Source: Octopus vulgaris (taxonomy: Eukaryota). From it: a DNA stretch of 64,000 nt. This document shows, piece after piece, positions 21,646 through 58,081 of the stretch. The position numbers were made by a program, and so were the translations under genes. Each line of letters starts with the position of its first letter. The first letter of the stretch is position 1. The stretch covers positions 178,312,001 through 178,376,000 of the forward strand of contig OX597815.1 of NCBI GenBank assembly GCA_951406725.2, in the 5' to 3' direction. The notes below the pieces were generated by a model. It made no database searches, was not told the DNA's origin, and worked only from the letters and a program-made list of their open reading frames with translations.

Positions 21646-21999
21646 ATTTTTCAGTTTGAATTCTTTGCTCCAACACTTTTCACTGTTTACTTTGTGGTGA
21701 TGTTGCAGTCTGATTTGAGTAACTCTAAAAACAGTATTTATATATTATGCGTTCGTACAACTAGAAAGCTCTTTTATCTCATCAGGATGAACTTTAAGAG
21801 CAAGATCCTTAAATCCTTAATAAAAGATTACCTTGATGCTTATGACTGTAACGGTGAGATCAGTTTTCAGAACCTCGTCAAAGCATTAGATGCTACCTGT
21901 GACAGCATCTAATACTAAACAAAAACCGCACCAGAGCAGGCCTCAATTGTTCCTCAAATATAAGGGAAAGGTAAACGATTAGCTGCTGTTCATTCCTTT

Positions 22000-22470
22000 A
22001 AACATTTATGCAGGAACTCCAGTCACAGAAATTGCATCTCGCATTCCAAAAGCAGCAAAATCTTTTGATTCCCTTAGAAATTCTTTCTGTCTACAACGAC
22101 ATATTAAGGTCAGTACAAAAATTTGGGTTTATCGTGCACTTGTACTCTCCTCCCTTTTTCATTCGGCCGAAACAGGGACTGGTTATGACCACCACATAAA
22201 ACCCTTAGAACGCTTTTACCAAAAGTGTCTTCATCAAATTCTCAGGATTCGCTGGAAACCGTTTGTTCCAAACACACAGGTGTTTGGAGAGAGGAAGGAT
22301 CTCATCACTCCACTTGGCTTCCAATCAGCTGAAACAGACTGGTCATTCGATGCAATAAGCAGTATTCTTTTTATGGTCAGCCAACTCCTGGGTAGTGAAA
22401 ACAGTGTAGGCCAAACAACTGTATAAAGATTTGCTAAGCATCAGTCTCAGGGATTTCTATCTGTACCAAG
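22000..22470 (+). mobile_element. RTE LINE RT fragment
   Basis: STKIWVYRALVLSSLFHSAETGTGYDHHIKPLERFYQKCLHQILRIRWKPFVPNTQV. Confidence 0.8.
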
Positions 22471-32003: not shown

Positions 32004-33080
32004 CAATAGGGATCGTTATCACAGAAATGTCAATATGAAGTGTAAAGGGGAGGACAGGTGAGGTTTACCCGTGGAAAGAAAAGCCTACGGAAAAGACCAC
32101 GGTAACCTCGGTCAATGAAGTCACATTTTATATTTCTTTTTTTTTTTTTTTTGCAAATAAGCAACTCTCTGTTTTCGATTTCTGGGTTCATAGGACTATG
32201 CTCAAGGTGGCTTCGTCATTCATACGTGCCATTCTTGCTACATTCACCCATCTTTTTTTAAAACATTCGCTAGACAAAACTTGCCTCTCTACTCTCACTT
32301 TCCTTTTCAAGTGGTACTTGAAGAAGTTGATGAGAGATTGACCAGAGAGGAAAGTGTTTGTCTCCAATCCTTTCAGACGCGTCCACCAGATACATTCCTT
32401 CGCCATAGCCACAAGGATGATGAAAATAGCTCTTCCTTCCCGTTTGAAGGAAGGAGGCGTGACAATATTGACGATAGACTCAGCTGATAAACCCACTCGT
32501 CCCACACGTGACAGCAGTTGTTCGACATAAGCCCACAGGTCGGAAATTGTTGGACACTGAACGAGTGCGTGCAGAACGGTTTCGTCGCTCTGACCGCATC
32601 TCGGGCAGGTCGGCCCCGTGTTTCTCGAGCCGTGTCTGTAGAGCTTATCCCGAACGGGTAGCGCTTCTCGGTAGCACTGCCAGGCCAGGGATCTCTGGAA
32701 GTTGTCCATGGGCCCTGGCCCGAAAGTCGTCCTGAACAGGCGGGTCAGGTACTCCTCGTCGACGTCCAGGTTCGCCCCGAGCTCGTCGTCGTACCTCCCC
32801 TCCACTAAACCCCTATAGAATGCTTTGGTTGTGTTGAAGTCACTTAAGGTCGACCCAGGACGGCAGAGTTGCTTGAGAGCAACGCGACACTCGCGGTGCC
32901 ATTCGCCCTTCCTCGGCCTCTTTTTGATCCACGACTGCAGTTCGGTCATGGAGACGAGCTGCGGGAAAGCGTGCCTCACAAACGGCGACCACACCTGTTC
33001 ACCGTCGTCTACATAGAGCCAGAGATGTCGCAGTCTCAGCGCGTGTCTGCGCATCATCAACCACGGCATGCCCAGCCCTC
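31806..33080 (-). mobile_element. 5'-truncated Tx1/L1-clade LINE inserted in (GATA)n
   Basis: Open ORF2 3' end, 3' UTR with AATAAA, and (TATC)n on both flanks. Confidence 0.85.
32188..33069 (-). CDS. LINE ORF2 C-terminal fragment (zf-RVT-type CCHC region); truncated, not a host gene
   Basis: GLGMP at the truncation; W..YREALPVRDKL; CPRCGQSDETVLHALVQC; IWWTR; uninterrupted 293 codons. Confidence 0.8.
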   Translation of the reverse strand: MPWLMMRRHALRLRHLWLYVDDGEQVWSPFVRHAFPQLVSMTELQSWIKKRPRKGEWHRECRVALKQLCRPGSTLSDFNTTKAFYRGLVEGRYDDELGANLDVDEEYLTRLFRTTFGPGPMDNFQRSLAWQCYREALPVRDKLYRHGSRNTGPTCPRCGQSDETVLHALVQCPTISDLWAYVEQLLSRVGRVGLSAESIVNIVTPPSFKREGRAIFIILVAMAKECIWWTRLKGLETNTFLSGQSLINFFKYHLKRKVRVERQVLSSECFKKRWVNVARMARMNDEATLSIVL

Positions 33081-39294: not shown

Positions 39295-39330
<36 letters not shown>

Positions 39331-39336
<6 letters not shown>

Positions 39337-42300
39337 AAAGGGCTTAGTAAAATAAATTACTTTGCCGCATACTGAACTCATTAGAAATAGCAGCTAAAAA
39401 ACTTTTTTTAAACTATTTCTAATACTTAAAGAAAACCTCTCTCATATAGTGTTTGCTCAACTCAACTCACGAAAGTTTGGGGGTAAATACATCAAAAAAT
39501 CAAATGCAAAGGTTATTTGAGAACGTACGTTTCAAGATTAGTCAACACGACACTTCTATCATCAGCTCAGAAACTCCTTGGTTTGGATTTGAAAACACTG
39601 AAAGTGAGAGCATACCCTTTCGGCTTCTCATCGCTTTCGAAGATCTGCTCGTAACTAACAGTGCCAACAAACTCAAATATGCAAGCGAAGAATTTCTGTT
39701 CTCCCCTTTCCACCAGCGTGGGTTAAAATCAGCAAACACTATGCTTATTTCGGTAAAATCCGAAGCATTAATTAGAGGGAGATTAATTATAATTTCAACA
39801 ATTGAGGGTAAAATTAATTAATTATTAATCAATTTCACCAAGTGTTCAGTATGCAAAGGGACCATTTAAGGCGAATTCAAATTATTACATTATATAAAAG
39901 GGCTTAGTAAAATAAATTACTTTGCCGCATACTGAACTCATTAGAAATAGCAGCTAAAAAACTTTTTTTAAACTATTTCTAATACTTAAAGAAAACCTCT
40001 CTCATATAGTGTTTGCTCAACTCAACTCACGAAAGTTTGGGGGTAAATACATCAAAAAATCAAATGCAAAGGTTATTTGAGAACGTACGTTTCAAGATTA
40101 GTCAACACGACACTTCTATCATCAGCTCAGAAACTCCTTGGTTTGGATTTGAAAACACTGAAAGTGAGAGCATACCCTTTCGGCTTCTCATCGCTTTCGA
40201 AGATCTGCTCGTAACTAACAGTGCCAACAAACTCAAATATGCAAGCGAAGAATTTCTGTTCTCCCCTTTCCACCAGCGTGGGTTAAAATCAGCAAACACT
40301 ATGCTTATTTCGGTAAAATCCGAAGCATTAATTAGAGGGAGATTAATTATAATTTCAACAATTGAGGGTAAAATTAATTAATTATTAATCAATTTCACCA
40401 AGTGTTCAGTATGCAAAGGGACCATTTAAGGCGAATTCAAATTATTACATTATATAAAAGGGCTTAGTAAAATAAATTACTTTGCCGCATACTGAACTCA
40501 TTAGAAATAGCAGCTAAAAAACTTTTTTTTAAACTATTTCTAATACTTAAAGAAAACCTCTCTCATATAGTGTTTGCTCAACTCAACTCACGAAAGTTTG
40601 GGGGTAAATACATCAAAAAATCAAATGCAAAGGTTATTTGAGAACGTACGTTTCAAGATTAGTCAACACGACACTTCTATCATCAGCTCAGAAAGTCCTT
40701 GGTTTGGATTTGAAAACACTGAAAGTGAGAGCATACCCTTTCGGCTTCTCATCGCTTTCGAAGATCTGCTCGTAACTAACAGTGCCAACAAACTCAAATA
40801 TGCAAGCGAAGAATTTCTGTTCTCCCCTTTCCACCAGCGTGGGTTAAAATCAGCAAACACTATGCTTATTTCGGTAAAATCCGAAGCATTAATTAGAGGG
40901 AGATTAATTATAATTTCAACAATTGAGGGTAAAATTAATTAATTATTAATCAATTTCACCAAGTGTTCAGTATGCAAAGGGACCATTTAAGGCGAATTCA
41001 AATTATTACATTATATAAAAGGGCTTAGTAAAATAAATTACTTTGCCGCATACTGAACTCATTAGAAATAGCAGCTAAAAAACTTTTTTAAAACTATTTC
41101 TAATACTTAAAGAAAACCTCTCTCATATAGTGTTTGCTCAACTCAACTCACGAAAGTTTGGGGGTAAATACATCAAAAAATCAAATGCAAAGGTTATTTG
41201 AGAACGTACGTTTCAAGATTAGTCAACACGACACTTCTATCATCAGCTCAGAAACTCCTTGGTTTGGATTTGAAAACACTGAAAGTGAGAGCATACCCTT
41301 TCGGTTTCTCATCGCTTTCGAAGATCTGCTCGTAACTAACAGTGCCAACAAACTCAAATATGCAAGCGAAGAATTTCTGTTCTCCCCTTTCCACCAGCGT
41401 GGGTTAAAATCAGCAAACACTATGCTTATTTCGGTAAAATCCGAAGCATTAATTAGAGGGAGATTAATTATAATTTCAACAATTGAGGGTAAAATTAATT
41501 AATTATTAATCAATTTCACCAAGTGTTCAGTATGCAAAGGGACCATTTAAGGCGAATTCAAATTATTACATTATATAAAAGGGCTTAGTAAAATAAATTA
41601 CTTTGCCGCATACTGAACTCATTAGAAATAGCAGCTAAAAAACTTTTTTTAAACTATTTCTAATACTTAAAGAAAACCTCTCTCATATAGTGTTTGCTCA
41701 ACTCAACTCACGAAAGTTTGGGGGTAAATACATCAAAAAATCAAATGCAAAGGTTATTTGAGAACGTACGTTTCAAGATTAGTCAACACGACACTTCTAT
41801 CATCAGCTCAGAAACTCCTTGGTTTGGATTTGAAAACACTGAAAGTGAGAGCATACCCTTTCGGCTTCTCATCGCTTTCGAAGATCTGCTCGTAACTAAC
41901 AGTGCCAACAAACTCAAATATGCAAGCGAAGAATTTCTGTTCTCCCCTTTCCACCAGCGTGGGTTAAAATCAGCAAACACTATGCTTATTTCGGTAAAAT
42001 CCGAAGCATTAATTAGAGGGAGATTAATTATAATTTCAACAATTGAGGGTAAAATTAATTAATTATTAATCAATTTCACCAAGTGTTCAGTATGCAAAGG
42101 GACCATTTAAGGCGAATTCAAATTATTACATTATATAAAAGGGCTTAGTAAAATAAATTACTTTGCCGCATACTGAACTCATTAGAAATAGCAGCTAAAA
42201 AACTTTTTTTAAACTATTTCTAATACTTAAAGAAAACCTCTCTCATATAGTGTTTGCTCAACTCAACTCACGAAAGTTTGGGGGTAAATACATCAAAAAA

Positions 42301-45300
42301 TCAAATGCAAAGGTTATTTGAGAACGTACGTTTCAAGATTAGTCAACACGACACTTCTATCATCAGCTCAGAAACTCCTTGGTTTGGATTTGAAAACACT
42401 GAAAGTGAGAGCATACCCTTTCGGCTTCTCATCGCTTTCGAAGATCTGCTCGTAACTAACAGTGCCAACAAACTCAAATATGCAAGCGAAGAATTTCTGT
42501 TCTCCCCTTTCCACCAGCGTGGGTTAAAATCAGCAAACACTATGCTTATTTCGGTAAAATCCGAAGCATTAATTAGAGGGAGATTAATTATAATTTCAAC
42601 AATTGAGGGTAAAATTAATTAATTATTAATCAATTTCACCAAGTGTTCAGTATGCAAAGGGACCATTTAAGGCGAATTCAAATTATTACATTATATAAAA
42701 GGGCTTAGTAAAATAAATTACTTTGCCGCATACTGAACTCATTAGAAATAGCAGCTAAAAAACTTTTTTTAAAACTATTTCTAATACTTAAAGAAAACCT
42801 CTCTCATATAGTGTTTGCTCAACTCAACTCACGAAAGTTTGGGGGTAAATACATCAAAAAATCAAATGCAAAGTTTATTTGAGAACGTACGTTTCAAGAT
42901 TAGTCAACGCGACACTTCTATCATCAGCTCAGAAAGTCCTTGGTTTGGATTTGAAAACACTGAAAGTGAGAGCATACCCTTTCGGTTTCTCATCGCTTTC
43001 GAAGATCTGCTCGTAACTAACAGTGCCAACAAACTCAAATATGCAAGCGAAGAATTTCTGTTCTCCCCTTTCCACCAGCGTGGGTTAAAATCAGCAAACA
43101 CTATGCTTATTTCGGTAAAATCCGAAGCATTAATTAGAGGGAGATTAATTATAATTTCAACAATTGAGGGTAAAATTAATTAATTATTAATCAATTTCAC
43201 CAAGTGTTCAGTATGCAAAGGGACCATTTAAGGCGAATTCAAATTATTACATTATATAAAAGGGCTTAGTAAAATAAATTACTTTGCCGCATACTGAACT
43301 CATTAGAAATAGCAGCTAAAAAACTTTTTTAAACTATTTCTAATACTTAAAGAAAACCTCTCTCATATAGTGTTTGCTCAACTCAACTCACGAAAGTTTG
43401 GGGGTAAATACATCAAAAAATCAAATGCAAAGGTTATTTGAGAACGTACGTTTCAAGATTAGTCAACACGACACTTCTATCATCAGCTCAGAAACTCCTT
43501 GGTTTGGATTTGAAAACACTGAAAGTGAGAGCATACCCTTTCGGCTTCTCATCGCTTTCGAAGATCTGCTCGTAACTAACAGTGCCAACAAACTCAAATA
43601 TGCAAGCGAAGAATTTCTGTTCTCCCCTTTCCACCAGCGTGGGTTAAAATCAGCAAACACTATGCTTATTTCGGTAAAATCCGAAGCATTAATTAGAGGG
43701 AGATTAATTATAATTTCAACAATTGAGGGTAAAATTAATTAATTATTAATCAATTTCACCAAGTGTTCAGTATGCAAAGGGACCATTTAAGGCGAATTCA
43801 AATTATTACATTATATAAAAGGGCTTAGTAAAATAAATTACTTTGCCGCATACTGAACTCATTAGAAATAGCAGCTAAAAAACTTTTTTAAACTATTTCT
43901 AATACTTAAAGAAAACCTCTCTCATATAGTGTTTGCTCAACTCAACTCACGAAAGTTTGGGGGTAAATACATCAAAAAATCAAATGCAAAGGTTATTTGA
44001 GAACGTACGTTTCAAGATTAGTCAACACGACACTTCTATCATCAGCTCAGAAACTCCTTGGTTTGGATTTGAAAACACTGAAAGTGAGAGCATACCCTTT
44101 CGGCTTCTCATCGCTTTCGAAGATCTGCTCGTAACTAACAGTGCCAACAAACTCAAATATGCAAGCGAAGAATTTCTGTTCTCCCCTTTCCACCAGCGTG
44201 GGTTAAAATCAGCAAACACTATGCTTATTTCGGTAAAATCCGAAGCATTAATTAGAGGGAGATTAATTATAATTTCAACAATTGAGGGTAAAATTAATTA
44301 ATTATTAATCAATTTCACCAAGTGTTCAGTATGCAAAGGGACCATTTAAGGCGAATTCAAATTATTACATTATATAAAAGGGCTTAGTAAAATAAATTAC
44401 TTTGCCGCATACTGAACTCATTAGAAATAGCAGCTAAAAAACTTTTTTAAAACTATTTCTAATACTTAAAGAAAACCTCTCTCATATAGTGTTTGCTCAA
44501 CTCAACTCACGAAAGTTTGGGGGTAAATACATCAAAAAATCAAATGCAAAGGTTATTTGAGAACGTACGTTTCAAGATTAGTCAACACGACACTTCTATC
44601 ATCAGCTCAGAAACTCCTTGGTTTGGATTTGAAAACACTGAAAGTGAGAGCATACCCTTTCGGTTTCTCATCGCTTTCGAAGATCTGCTCGTAACTAACA
44701 GTGCCAACAAACTCAAATATGCAAGCGAAGAATTTATGTTCTCCCCTTTCCACCAGCGTGGGTTAAAATCAGCGAACACTATGCTTATTTCGGTAAAATC
44801 CGAAGCATTAATTAGAGGGAGATTAATTATAATTTCAACAATTGAGGGTAAAATTAATTAATTATTAATCAATTTCACCAAGTGTTCAGTATGCAAAGGG
44901 ACCATTTAAGGCGAATTCAAATTATTACATTATATAAAAGGGCTTAGTAAAATAAATTACTTTGCCGCATACTGAACTCATTAGAAATAGCAGCTAAAAA
45001 ACTTTTTTAAACTATTTCTAATACTTAAAGAAAACCTCTCTCATATAGTGTTTGCTCAACTCAACTCACGAAAGTTTGGGGGTAAATACATCAAAAAATC
45101 AAATGCAAAGGTTATTTGAGAACGTACGTTTCAAGATTAGTCAACACGACACTTCTATCATCAGCTCAGAAACTCCTTGGTTTGGATTTGAAAACACTGA
45201 AAGTGAGAGCATACCCTTTCGGCTTCTCATCGCTTTCGAAGATCTGCTCGTAACTAACAGTGCCAACAAACTCAAATATGCAAGCGAAGAATTTCTGTTC

Positions 45301-46167
45301 TCCCCTTTCCACCAGCGTGGGTTAAAATCAGCAAACACTATGCTTATTTCGGTAAAATCCGAAGCATTAATTAGAGGGAGATTAATTATAATTTCAACAA
45401 TTGAGGGTAAAATTAATTAATTATTAATCAATTTCACCAAGTGTTCAGTATGCAAAGGGACCATTTAAGGCGAATTCAAATTATTACATTATATAAAAGG
45501 GCTTAGTAAAATAAATTACTTTGCCGCATACTGAACTCATTAGAAATAGCAGCTAAAAAACTTTTTTAAAACTATTTCTAATACTTAAAGAAAACCTCTC
45601 TCATATAGTGTTTGCTCAACTCAACTCACGAAAGTTTGGGGGTAAATACATCAAAAAATCAAATGCAAAGGTTATTTGAGAACGTACGTTTCAAGATTAG
45701 TCAACACGACACTTCTATCATCAGCTCAGAAACTCCTTGGTTTGGATTTGAAAACACTGAAAGTGAGAGCATACCCTTTCGGCTTCTCATCGCTTTCGAA
45801 GATCTGCTCGTTACTAACAGTGCCAACAAACTCAAATATGCAAGCGAAGAATTTCTGTTCTCCCCTTTCCACCAGCGTGGGTTAAAATCAGCAAACACTA
45901 TGCTTATTTCGGTAAAATCCGAAGCATTAATTAGAGGGAGATTAATTATAATTTCAACAATTGAGGGTAAAATTAATTAATTATTAATCAATTTCACCAA
46001 GTGTTCAGTATGCAAAGGGACCATTTAAGGCGAATTCAAATTATTACATTATATAAAAGGGCTTAGTAAAATAAATTACTTTGCCTTAAATGGTCCCTTT
46101 GCATACTGAACACTTGGTGAAATTGATTAATAATTAATTAATTTTACCCTCAATTGTTGAAATTATA
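39331..46167 (-). repeat. Tandem array of 12 x ~560-bp hammerhead-bearing units, a partial 13th unit and a terminal 85-bp inversion, in (TA)n
   Basis: Periods of 559-561 bp from the ORF track; units nearly identical; 46083-46167 is the reverse complement of ~45947-46031. Confidence 0.95.
39518..39569 (-). ncRNA. Type I hammerhead ribozyme, first of 12 copies at ~560-bp spacing
   Basis: tgag-CTGATGA-tagaagtgtcgtgttgactaatctt-GAAA-cgtacg-TT-ctca; palindromic stem III ACGTACGT; U.U at the base of stem II. Confidence 0.7.
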
Positions 46168-48953: not shown

Positions 48954-48997
<44 letters not shown>

Positions 48998-49123
48998 CAG
49001 CAACAATCAAGGAACGGCCATAATAGGCCATTCACCCACTAGAAATAACAGCCAGAAGCTTTAACCGCAAAATAACGTCAATTCCGTAAACCAGGAGAAA
49101 ATTGAAAAACATTTACCCTGTAA

Positions 49124-49228
49124 TTTCTTAGACGATGCACCGTTTCATCTTCTGTTTAATGGAAAACTAACCTGATTAAATTAAATCAAGCCAATCTACC
49201 AGAGGCCCTTAGATTCATCAGTAAGAAA
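49124..49228 (-). ncRNA. Type I hammerhead ribozyme (inverted copy)
   Basis: Reverse complement of 49846-49950. Confidence 0.8.
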
Positions 49229-49845
49229 TAGCCAAACCGGAACAGATATTTTTCACGAGGCATTCTCATTGCTACCTCGTCAATATCTGACCTAAAATTT
49301 TCAAATCGTCGCACTCGCGCCAAATTTAACGGCAGCAAATAAATATAAGCCGCCGATTCCATTACGGAATTAACCAGAAAATTCATAATTAATCAATATA
49401 GGGTGGCAAAAAAATTTTGTAGAATTCTTTTGCCACCAGCGGTGCATCGTCTAAGAAATTACAGGGTAAATGTTTTTCAATTTTCTCCTGGTTTACGGAA
49501 TTGACGTTATTTTGCGGTTAAAGCTTTTGGCTGTTATTTCTAGTGGGTGAATGGCCTATTATGGCCGTTCCTTGATTGTTGATGTTGAACTTAAAATGGT
49601 TTATGACTATTTAATTTTTTTCCCACTAGGCCGCTGGTGGCAAAAGAATTCTACAAAATTTTTTTTGCCACCCTATATTGATTAATTATGAATTTTCTGG
49701 TTAATTCCGTAATGGAATCGGCGGCTTATATTTATTTGCTGCCGTTAAATTTGGCGCGAGTGCGACGATTTGAAAATTTTAGGTCAGATATTAACGAGGT
49801 AGCAATGAGAATGCCTCGTGAAAAATATCTGTTCCGGTTTGGCTA

Positions 49846-49950
49846 TTTCTTACTGATGAATCTAAGGGCCTATGGTAGATTGGCTTGATTTAATTTAATC
49901 AGGTTAGTTTTCCATTAAACAGAAGATGAAACGGTGCATCGTCTAAGAAA
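49846..49950 (+). ncRNA. Type I hammerhead ribozyme, intact core, long branched stem II
   Basis: tttctta-CTGATGA-atct...agat-GAAA-cggtgcatcg-TC-taagaaa; perfect 7-bp stem I; GUC site at 49943. Confidence 0.85.
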
Positions 49951-50336
49951 TTACAGGGTAAATGTTTTTCAATTTTCTCCTGGTTTACGGAACTGACGTT
50001 ATTTTGCGGTTAAAGCTTTTGGCTGTTATTTCTAGTGGGTGAATGGCCTATTATGGCCGTTCCTTGATTGTTGATGTTGAACTTAAAATGGTTTATGACT
50101 ATTTAATTTTTTCCCACTAGGCCGCTGGTGGCAAAAGAATTCTACAAAATTTTTTTTGCCACCCTATATTGATTAATTATGAATTTTCTGGTTAATTCCG
50201 TAATGGAATCGGCGGCTTATATTTATTTGCTGCCGTTAAATTTGGCGCGAGTGCGACGATTTGAAAATTTTAGGTCAGATATTGACGAGGTAGCAATGAG
50301 AATGCCTCGTGAAAAATATCTATTCCGGTTTGGCTA

Positions 50337-50441
50337 TTTCTTACTGATGAATCTAAGGGCCTATGGTAGATTGGCTTGATTTAATTTAATCAGGTTAGTT
50401 TTCCATTAAACAGAAGATGAAACGGTGCATCGTCTAAGAAA
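50337..50441 (+). ncRNA. Type I hammerhead ribozyme (second tandem copy)
   Basis: Same motif 491 bp downstream; GUC site at 50434. Confidence 0.85.
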
Positions 50442-50662
50442 TTACAGGGTAAATGTTTTTCAATTTTCTCCTGGTTTACGGAATTGACGTTATTTTGCGG
50501 TTAAAGCTTTTGGCTGTTATTTCTAGTGGGTGAATGGCCTATTATGGCCGTTCCTTGATTGTTGATGTTGAACTTAAAATGGTTTATGACTATTTAATTT
50601 TTTCCCACTAGGCCGCTGGTGGCAAAAGAATTCTACAAAATTTTTTTGCCACCCTATATTGA

Positions 50663-50697
<35 letters not shown>

Positions 50698-56816: not shown

Positions 56817-58081
56817 CAGGTATTGGACAAAATAATGGAAACACCCAGCATCATAGCATCATAATTTTGAAATATCTGTAAAACCGTCAAAAGCTTATTT
56901 ATTTTTATGTTTTTCCATTTATTAGGATTGCTTAATATGTTTTCCTAAAATTGCTGTTTCTTTTCAGATATCATCAGAAAAGTTTTATTAAAATTCATTA
57001 AAATGACAGGTCTATCTGTCTTTCAAAGGGGTCAAATTGTTGGTGCTCGTATGACAGGCGCTAGCGTAACAAAAACAGCCGAAATGTTTGGTGTATGAAG
57101 AAGTACTGACTCGAAAGTAATGACAGCTTTTGAGAAAGAGGGAAGAAAACCTCCTCGTCGAAGCAAAACTCCAGAAGAAAACCAAAACTTTCAGATAGAG
57201 ACCGTCGGACTCTTATGCGAATTGTGAGAAAGGATCACCAAAGTACAGCTCCCAAAATTACTGCAGTGCTTAATGACCACCTTGAGAACGTAGTTTCCAC
57301 AAAAACTGTTCGCTGGGAGCTGCACAAAGCCGGACTTCACGAGAGGGCTGCAATCAGAAAACCACTACTTTCAAAAACAAACATTGCAAGGCGTTTAGAG
57401 TGGGGTAAAGACCTACATAATTGGCCCCTGGAGCAGTGGAAGAATGTTATTTTCTCAGATGAGTCATCCTTTACCTTATTTCCGACCCCCGGCCGAGTAT
57501 ATGTGTGGAGACAGCCAAAAGAATCATTTGACCCAGACTGCCTTCTTAAACATGGAGGGGGATCTGTGATGATCTGGGGAGGCTACATCTTTGAAATCCG
57601 CCGGCCCAATGGTCCCCTTCATGGCAGAATTAATAGTCAAGACTAGTTAAGCATTTTATCTGATCAAATTCATACTATGGTTGTGGAACTGTTTCCAGGG
57701 GAGAAACACAATCTTTCAGTATGATAATGCACCAATTCAGACAGCTAAAGTTATAATTGAATGGCACGAGGAACATTCTAGTGAAGTTGAACATCTTATT
57801 TGGCCATCACAATCCGCAGATCTCAATATTATTGAATGTTTATGGTGCATTTCCGAAAAATAAGTAAGGAGTCGATATCCTCCACTATCATCAGTACAAG
57901 AACTGGAGACTATTTTAGCTGAAGAATGGCAAAAAATTCCTTTGGAAACAATTCAAACTTTGTACGAGTCTATACCTCGTAGAATTCAAGCTGTAATTAC
58001 TGCTAGAGGAGGTCTTACCCCATTTTAAAATATATTTGTTTGAAATTTTAAGGTGTTTCCATTATTTTGTCCAAACCCCTG
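56817..58081 (+). mobile_element. Full-length Tc1-like transposon with a disrupted transposase
   Basis: TIRs CAGG..TTGGACAAAATAATGGAAACACC / GGTGTTTCCATTATTTTGTCCAAACCCCTG. Confidence 0.92.
57003..58028 (+). pseudogene. Tc1 DD34E transposase pseudogene
   Basis: WKNVIFSDES, KHGGGSVMIWG, FQYDNAP, WPSQSADLNIIE; several stops and frameshifts. Confidence 0.9.

Follow-up and report, generated by a model that had tools for sequence, protein, structure and literature searches.

The window analysed here, a stretch of 64,000 nucleotides from Octopus vulgaris, contains a 491-bp repeat with hammerhead ribozyme motifs on both strands. This raises the questions what kind of element it is, whether its ribozymes could cut and by which route it entered the site. 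A first-pass annotation, made from the sequence, had described a tandem and inverted element with three intact cores, of which two sense cleavage sites lie 491 nt apart and the third motif is antisense. This arrangement is present as described: CTGATGA starts at +49853, +50344 and -49221, the GAAA-to-GUC side GAAACGGTGCATCGTC lies at +49928-49943, +50419-50434 and -49146-49131, and a strict scan of the window for the core with three stems returned exactly three motifs with these same starts. What the annotation overlooked is that the locus belongs to a high-copy mobile family with a Penelope-type insertion footprint.

The locus and its family

The locus consists of an inverted arm of 443 bp that stands head-to-head with 2.5 sense copies of a 491/492-bp unit, all inside a (TA)n tract (Table 1). 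The period is first 492 and then 491 bp, a difference that lies in a T-run, and the copies differ from each other in few substitutions and in T-run lengths. With unit positions numbered from the predicted cleavage site, the inverted arm has its 5' end at position 180 and its 3' end at position 134 (fixed site 1), and the sense arm starts inside stem III (position ~480) and ends at position 234 (fixed site 2). Both arms have 3 nt of microhomology in common at their junction, and a target-site duplication is not discernible within (TA)n. The longest ORF of the unit is 66 aa, and the GC content is 35% (601 nt measured). Two complete type I hammerheads follow each other here; elsewhere in the genome arms reach 7.9 units. 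The minus-strand hammerhead is a single copy and thus has no partner for a double hammerhead. An antisense hammerhead within the unit was not found.

Table 1. Features of the locus, in window coordinates
Feature	Position	Strand	Basis
(TA)n target, left half	48975..48996	.	sequence
Inverted arm, partial, 0.91 unit	48997..49442	-	unit mapping
Hammerhead, complete type I, single copy	49123..49229	-	core-plus-stems scan
Sense arm, 2.5 units	49440..50667	+	unit mapping
Half ribozyme (stem III, GUC, 3' strand of stem I), from 5' truncation	49440..49458	+	
Hammerhead 1, predicted cut after C49943	49845..49951	+	
Hammerhead 1, stem I	49845-52/49944-51	+	
Hammerhead 1, CUGAUGA	49853-59	+	
Hammerhead 1, stem II base	49860-63/49924-27	+	
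Hammerhead 1, GAAA	49928-31	+	
Hammerhead 1, stem III	49931-34/49939-42	+	
Stem II extension: internal loop and 18-pair hairpin (49872-49915) with near-invariant ATTTAATTTAAT apex	49864..49923	+	
491-nt non-coding unit between two predicted cuts	49944..50434	+	
Two-site module: GCTGYTATTTCTA-like conserved motif, hairpin 1, end 1, hairpin 2, end 2	50021..50184	+	
Fixed end 1 within two-site module	about 50071-77	+	
Fixed end 2 within two-site module	about 50175-84	+	
Hammerhead 2, predicted cut after C50434	50336..50442	+	
Hairpin 2, 14 nt short of the insertion's right end	50618..50653	+	
(TA)n target, right half	50668..50696	.	sequence

Searches of the genome (2.8 Gb) gave 2,361 matches to a pattern of the insert and 1,066 to a core-plus-stem-III pattern, with 0 in either reversed control. 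A looser pattern, with the wrong stem III length, stayed at chance level (1,463 matches against 1,226 in the control). With a 201-nt query 1,542 candidates were obtained, of which the 40 that were scored were all near-identical, and young copies spread over several contigs are 99-100% identical. The family is young, dispersed and mobile, and the locus is one insertion of many. The pattern matches include family A (~491 nt) and family B (~474 nt, 72-76% identical). Related sequence also occurs in contigs from runs of organisms B-D, and the unit is covered by contigs of four presumed-RNA runs, which show presence and not level, strand, ends or circles. RNA editing was not accepted as an explanation of differences in the contigs, which have 10-28 A>G against 2-9 T>C, but genomic copies already have 22 against 16.

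More distant families have a similar build. Family E (L204:3680-4719; L267-L286) shares the long-stem-II architecture, has a unit of 593 nt and accounts for most of the listed matches to a pattern with 456 matches (control 1). The window itself contains a 560-bp array, family F, at 39330-46167, with 12 minus-strand cores 559-561 bp apart, a GUU site, a palindromic stem III, a 25-nt stem II and a 98-bp inverted arm. That the 491-bp element is the best candidate in the window for an active ribozyme, as the annotation had it, is contestable since this 12-copy array is present. Family G (L287-L293) is old and short, with a stem II of ~55 nt, an AT-rich apex that resembles E and a ACAGCTGT stem III; an adjoining ORF was absent in 7 of 7 loci, except for a 40-aa fragment ~2 kb off. 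Old dispersed hammerheads with a 62-64 nt stem II and a ACACGTGT-type stem III were seen at L070 and L079, with sequence unrelated to A and B.

Hammerhead conservation and predicted folding

In an alignment of 27 variants, hand-picked from 72 distinct ones, the core CUGANGA, GAAA and UH occurs in type I order in 27/27 and is invariant except for N7 (all four bases) and H17 (C or A). A split-core topology was rejected, as the strand order is that of an ordinary type I. Stem II measures 64-70 nt in 27 of the 27 and has a base of 4-7 bp, an internal loop and a hairpin of ~18 pairs. In total 93.5% of the cells are paired, and 15 of 34 pairs have changed on both sides, namely 5 of 7 in stem I, 4 of 4 in stem II, 1 of 4 in stem III and 5 of 19 in the extension. 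None of 500 shuffles reached this level and slid controls gave 28-46%; as the shuffle control ignores the relatedness of the rows, it lends strong support but no P value. The alignment indicates that the hammerhead fold is real and selected, and that the long stem II, a trait of the family, is likewise under selection.

The helices in the window agree with the annotation in position, less so in length. The stem II base pairs ATCT with AGAT around 60 nt as described, and stem I is perfectly paired, over 8 bp (ATTTCTTA/TAAGAAAT) and not the 7 bp given. Stem III, called quasi-palindromic, is self-complementary and can be refined to 4 bp with a UGCA loop. The hairpin inside stem II exists, with 18 pairs where 11 had been described. 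With its 4 bp, the stem II base of the window subfamily is among the weaker ones (predicted ddG 5.9 kcal/mol, range 1.9-12.3). The 10.1-11.1 pair is A-U in the window, and 11 of the 27 variants have no standard pair there. Across 110 full units eight runs are nearly invariant, and the ATTTAATTTAAT apex is one of them. An AU-rich stem II apex is kept across otherwise dissimilar families, and families E and G have an apex one base longer than ATTTAATTTAAT; they were found with filters that required the apex, so this link is biased.

Short-stem versions with the same stem III (spacers 12-42) gave 1 match against 1 in the control, which is chance level, and other spacer lengths gave 11 (43-62) and 10 (70-100) scattered single-locus matches, some of them artefacts. 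In 49000-50660 Rfam gave 15 matches at E<=10, none of them to a hammerhead, likely because of the long insert; across the window, the Rfam matches listed (150 of 206) are microsatellite noise. An intron within stem II (GT..AG inside) was also considered and rejected: the joint is absent from the contigs of four runs, a weak argument as contigs show presence only.

The annotation proposed that two sense copies would release a 491-nt monomer. The geometry for this is correct, but the monomer is predicted to adopt the hammerhead fold only sparsely at 37 C, with a probability of ~3e-3 alone, 2-3e-4 in context and 3e-4 as a circular monomer. The competing fold named by the annotation, AUCU with the nearer AGAU (49877-80), has a predicted probability of 0.0, with that AGAU buried in the hairpin. 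Predicted competitors are instead a pairing of CUGAUG with CAUCG and a GAUG/CAUC hairpin. For stem III, an intermolecular duplex is predicted at -17.5 kcal/mol, compared with -0.2 kcal/mol for the hairpin. In a tandem dimer the predicted double hammerhead has -188.5 kcal/mol, which equals the free MFE, and two monomer folds have -176.4 kcal/mol. The ensembles are at -198.8 (double), -188.1 (two monomers) and -201.8 kcal/mol (free), so that at 37 C the free ensemble would be favoured over the double fold by 3 kcal/mol; at 20 C the double fold lies 4.4 above the MFE. The double-hammerhead MFE result matches the dimer model of PMC4209133. Cleavage is thus predicted to proceed via the double hammerhead of neighbouring units and not via the monomer, and we consider it probable that the element is cut mainly as a dimer.

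ViennaRNA omits tertiary energy, and this leaves room for efficient cleavage of a monomer in which docking between the internal loop in the long stem II and an extension of stem I replaces the loop 1-loop 2 contact. There is no terminal loop 2 near the core, and the conserved internal loop is a candidate for a tertiary contact. The succession of basal stem, internal loop and apical hairpin recurs in families A, B and E and in the autonomous families P717 and P899 (see below), and stem III is able to form 4 bp with a tetraloop. Such docking seems improbable nevertheless, given the predicted stem III energies, a stem III loop that stays palindromic through paired changes (UGCA to UAUA) and covariation of the internal loop with stem I that is not established.

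In a predicted plus-strand transcript of the whole locus, the inverted arm pairs with hammerhead 2 and buries one ribozyme, so that for this copy to work, transcription would have to begin within the arm or beyond it. Xenopus retrozyme dimers are reported to have cleaved in vitro in 1/9 cases (10.64898/2026.07.22.740005). The hammerhead of Poseidon PAc from Anolis depended on protein, insertion proceeded without it, and RNA that had not been processed was the main substrate (PMC11167929). Both lower the odds of free activity. Our best guess is that the stem II arm is perhaps a protein-binding or docking arm that gates folding; a protein-binding arm, if real, is not described for animal hammerheads in the searchable literature.

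Insertion footprint and template

We mapped 84 loci (60 best matching A and 24 B), which were the first-listed hits and thus a non-random sample; 10 complex loci were excluded from the tally of ends. Among simple head-to-head loci, one arm ends at positions 121-144 and the other at 225-246 in 45 of 48; the remaining three comprise two with one off-site end and one with site 2 twice. Single arms end at site 1 or site 2 without exception (26/26), and none of the 84 loci has a tail-to-tail junction. The two sites are ~105 nt apart and distinct from the cleavage site; together their windows take up less than 10% of the unit. Most arms have TA at the 3' end. Their lengths range from 0.2 to 8 units (longest 7.9), and central junctions mostly have 0-8 nt of microhomology or short insertions. 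The insertions thus combine an inverted copy truncated at its 5' end with partial tandems, a one-sided tail and a bias for microsatellites, which is the footprint of Penelope-like elements.

Each fixed end lies 10-15 nt beyond a hairpin and a CCT/CCCT motif. Families E and F likewise have two ends, 97-110 nt apart; those of E are near 194 and 297-305, and those of the family F array are 97 nt apart, in a module that resembles that of the 491-bp family. Similarity of the 200-nt module is high for A-B (z=15) and E-F (11) and lower for A-E (3.8), A-F (3.7), B-F (2.5) and B-E (1.5). As stem II of family F is only 25 nt, the long arm is unnecessary for the two-site footprint.

Could the arrays be a satellite amplified at the DNA level, with the hammerhead as a dead relic? 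Tandem organisation and the lack of an Rfam match would suit this, but dispersed TA insertions whose 3' ends fall at two fixed sites and whose 5' ends vary would not, nor would the compensatory changes across all helices or the near-identical young copies on several contigs. We regard this reading as very improbable. With self-cleavage and circles, which are predicted, set aside, the unit has the testable defining features of a non-LTR retrozyme and is classified as such from its sequence. That it is a retrozyme mobilised by Penelope-like machinery is, in our judgement, very likely.

We also think it probable that multimeric RNA of this retrozyme is cut via double hammerheads and copied into TA by a borrowed Penelope-like RT-endonuclease. 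Tandem arrays would be transcribed, and neighbouring units would pair through the self-complementary stem III, so that multimers are cleaved into monomers of 491 nt; on its own, a monomer or a circle would be nearly inert. Monomers would be ligated into circles, as in other retrozymes. The enzyme would then cut both (TA)n strands and prime cDNA from both ends, at site 1 on one and at site 2 on the other. Each presumed priming site is just 3' of a hairpin, a position that is observed, with a priming mechanism that we infer from it. By running round the template the enzyme may produce arms of the observed lengths, and the two 5' ends may be joined through microhomology.

Passages over the cleavage site are intact in 240 of 241 cases and arms extend up to the longest noted above, which means that the template was a circle or an uncut multimer. 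In 25 loci with at least two full units, the mean within-locus distance is 1.6 substitutions, against 3.3 to the nearest other locus; units are closer within the locus in 18 of these and not closer in 7. The 14 loci with at least three units have 40 private and 6 subset-shared variants, and 6 of the 14 have variants that are fixed in all units and unseen in sampled close relatives. At one locus both arms carry an identical 10-nt loop expansion. This homogeneity favours a monomer bottleneck, and would also fit the copying of an already homogeneous array. We lean slightly towards a circular template.

The same element and enzymes could also work with an uncleaved multimeric transcript as template, in which case the hammerhead would be gated by protein or serve another step and a circle would be unneeded. 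PAc sets a precedent, since its hammerhead mutants insert normally and RNA-seq ends were not found at the cut site (PMC11167929), and the poorly populated monomer fold predicted here would agree with it. The 7.9-unit arm at L189 has two variants common to units four apart and zero private variants; this may come from a tetrameric template, as a copied multimer could give, or from later duplication. Homogeneous arrays at differing loci and the variants fixed at 6 of the 14 loci speak for a recurrent monomer bottleneck instead, and the catalytic positions and the stem III palindrome are kept across families. We therefore rate the uncleaved template as unlikely, though less so than docking, and retain the cleaved multimer as the preferred reading. 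The 5' ends of the arms were also considered as proof of cleavage and rejected as ambiguous: 9/96 lie at positions 1-20 (P=0.018; scan-corrected P=0.44) and 1/96 at 21-62, and pausing at stem I would mimic this clustering. Around hairpin 2 (155-242) there are 34/96.

A parallel to the footprint is PAc, for which PMC11167929 reports that RT starts at two internal sites and that both strands are cut and extended, and in which a dimer is predicted. As here, the start sites are downstream of the hammerhead near a stem-loop and the target is AT-rich, and the two fixed ends of our family correspond to the two in vitro RT start sites of PAc. PAc differs in being autonomous and in having no strand preference for a start site in vitro, whereas 45/48 loci here split the sites. 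A tentative picture, which we put forward with less confidence, is that the arrays record twin-primed rolling-circle reverse transcription, with a dimeric Penelope enzyme held on one RNA circle by a portable 200-nt two-site module and priming both cut strands at two fixed positions. The hammerhead would then be a dimer-gated switch and the 60-nt arm a protein-binding regulatory domain.

Candidate helpers and known relatives

That the helper belongs to the Penelope-like enzymes as a class is well supported. The unit has no RT plus GIY-YIG ORF. The lead to three autonomous Hydra-type families, P727, P717 and P899, was an old, broken element in which a 69-nt stem II lies upstream of what remains of an RT; the three families are young and have intact ORFs of 727, 717 and 899 aa (L111-L122, L234-L245). 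Their stem II, by direct reading, is 11, 31 and 55 nt long, and Hydra-type elements in this genome span 10-69 nt. All three have two fixed ends in TA, ~71, ~67 and ~160 nt apart. A further young family with a 781-aa ORF, P781 (L300, L305), has two ends in TA ~40 nt apart; it is presumably Neptune-like, judged by its CxxC linker, and no canonical hammerhead was found by pattern in its 3' region. P727 and P717 have RWK and DKT motifs, which define the Hydra clade in PMC8557442. In P899 the motifs are RWL and DKT, and identity over the RT is 40%; this family has 16,164 candidates and a long insertion that precedes the endonuclease. The core of P717 reads CCGAAGA.

The comparison for a helper covered P727, P717, P899, P781 and other GIY-YIG loci, with Naiad and other families outside it. 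The two-site module is absent from the autonomous elements compared (z<=2.1). No pLTR homology was found to P727, P717 or P899, nor to the 3' regions of 12 of 30 GIY-YIG loci, and BLAST of all 30 of these loci gave only a neighbouring family-E-like copy. Pfam had no match for two Hydra-type proteins, and tblastn of the two proteins against the 84 loci and the window gave matches only in the flanks of three loci. Our searches of the own genome score best hits only, and further young families may be hidden.

Metazoan non-LTR retrozymes likewise consist of non-coding, low-GC tandem units with a type I hammerhead each (PMC7229834, 10.64898/2026.07.22.740005), and their dependence on Penelope-like elements has been proposed there. 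The 491-bp unit falls in the reported range of 51-972 bp. Stem II is 64-70 nt here, compared with a canonical helix II of ~4 bp, and neither report, in its accessible text, describes arms that stand head-to-head and have two fixed, complementary ends. The present family is known from genomic sequence, with circles and cleavage as predictions.

Hydra-clade Penelope-like elements (PMC8557442) have in common with our family the (TA)n targeting, the inverted 5'-truncated copy, the optional tail, a short palindromic stem III and a stem II whose foot often has a mismatch or an additional base. They differ in the ORF, which our family lacks, and in a tail of 30-40 nt, against ~105 nt here. Published Hydra hammerheads have a loop 2 of 3-10 nt and two spike-moss PLE-X hammerheads a stem II of ~50 nt (PMC8557442), so that enlargement of stem II has a precedent. 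The minimal and double hammerheads of Penelope-like elements resemble ours in palindromic stem III, predicted dimeric activity and enlarged helix II, but PMC4209133 gives a helix II of 7-8 bp with a conserved G10.1-C11.1, whereas here it has ~25 pairs, an internal loop and a variable 10.1-11.1. Neither this family nor any animal retrozyme whose stem II spans 60-70 nt was found described in the literature searched, to which subscription papers, supplements on bioRxiv and those of PMC7229834 and PMC4209133 may add.

The class is known; new are the prediction of dimer gating, the shared two-site module, the graded stem II in autonomous Hydra-type elements and the negative search for a helper. PMC8557442 and PMC11167929 leave open how one-tailed head-to-head Penelope insertions originate and what role their hammerheads have. 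As a substrate the family is small and free of protein, its two start sites are mapped, the rule of one site per arm is nearly strict, and the genome also contains several young candidate enzymes; twin priming and the choice between circle and multimer as template thereby become directly testable. Hammerhead descriptors limited to a short stem II overlook abundant families, as the Rfam result exemplifies.

Retrozymes and Penelope-like elements often adjoin in one TA run (L159, L172, L204, L261), as repeated targeting of TA would give. The window also has ORF remnants at 32188-33078 (-), 21983-22426 (+) and 57134-57646 (+), which we take to be C-termini of non-LTR retrotransposons and a Tc1-type transposase.
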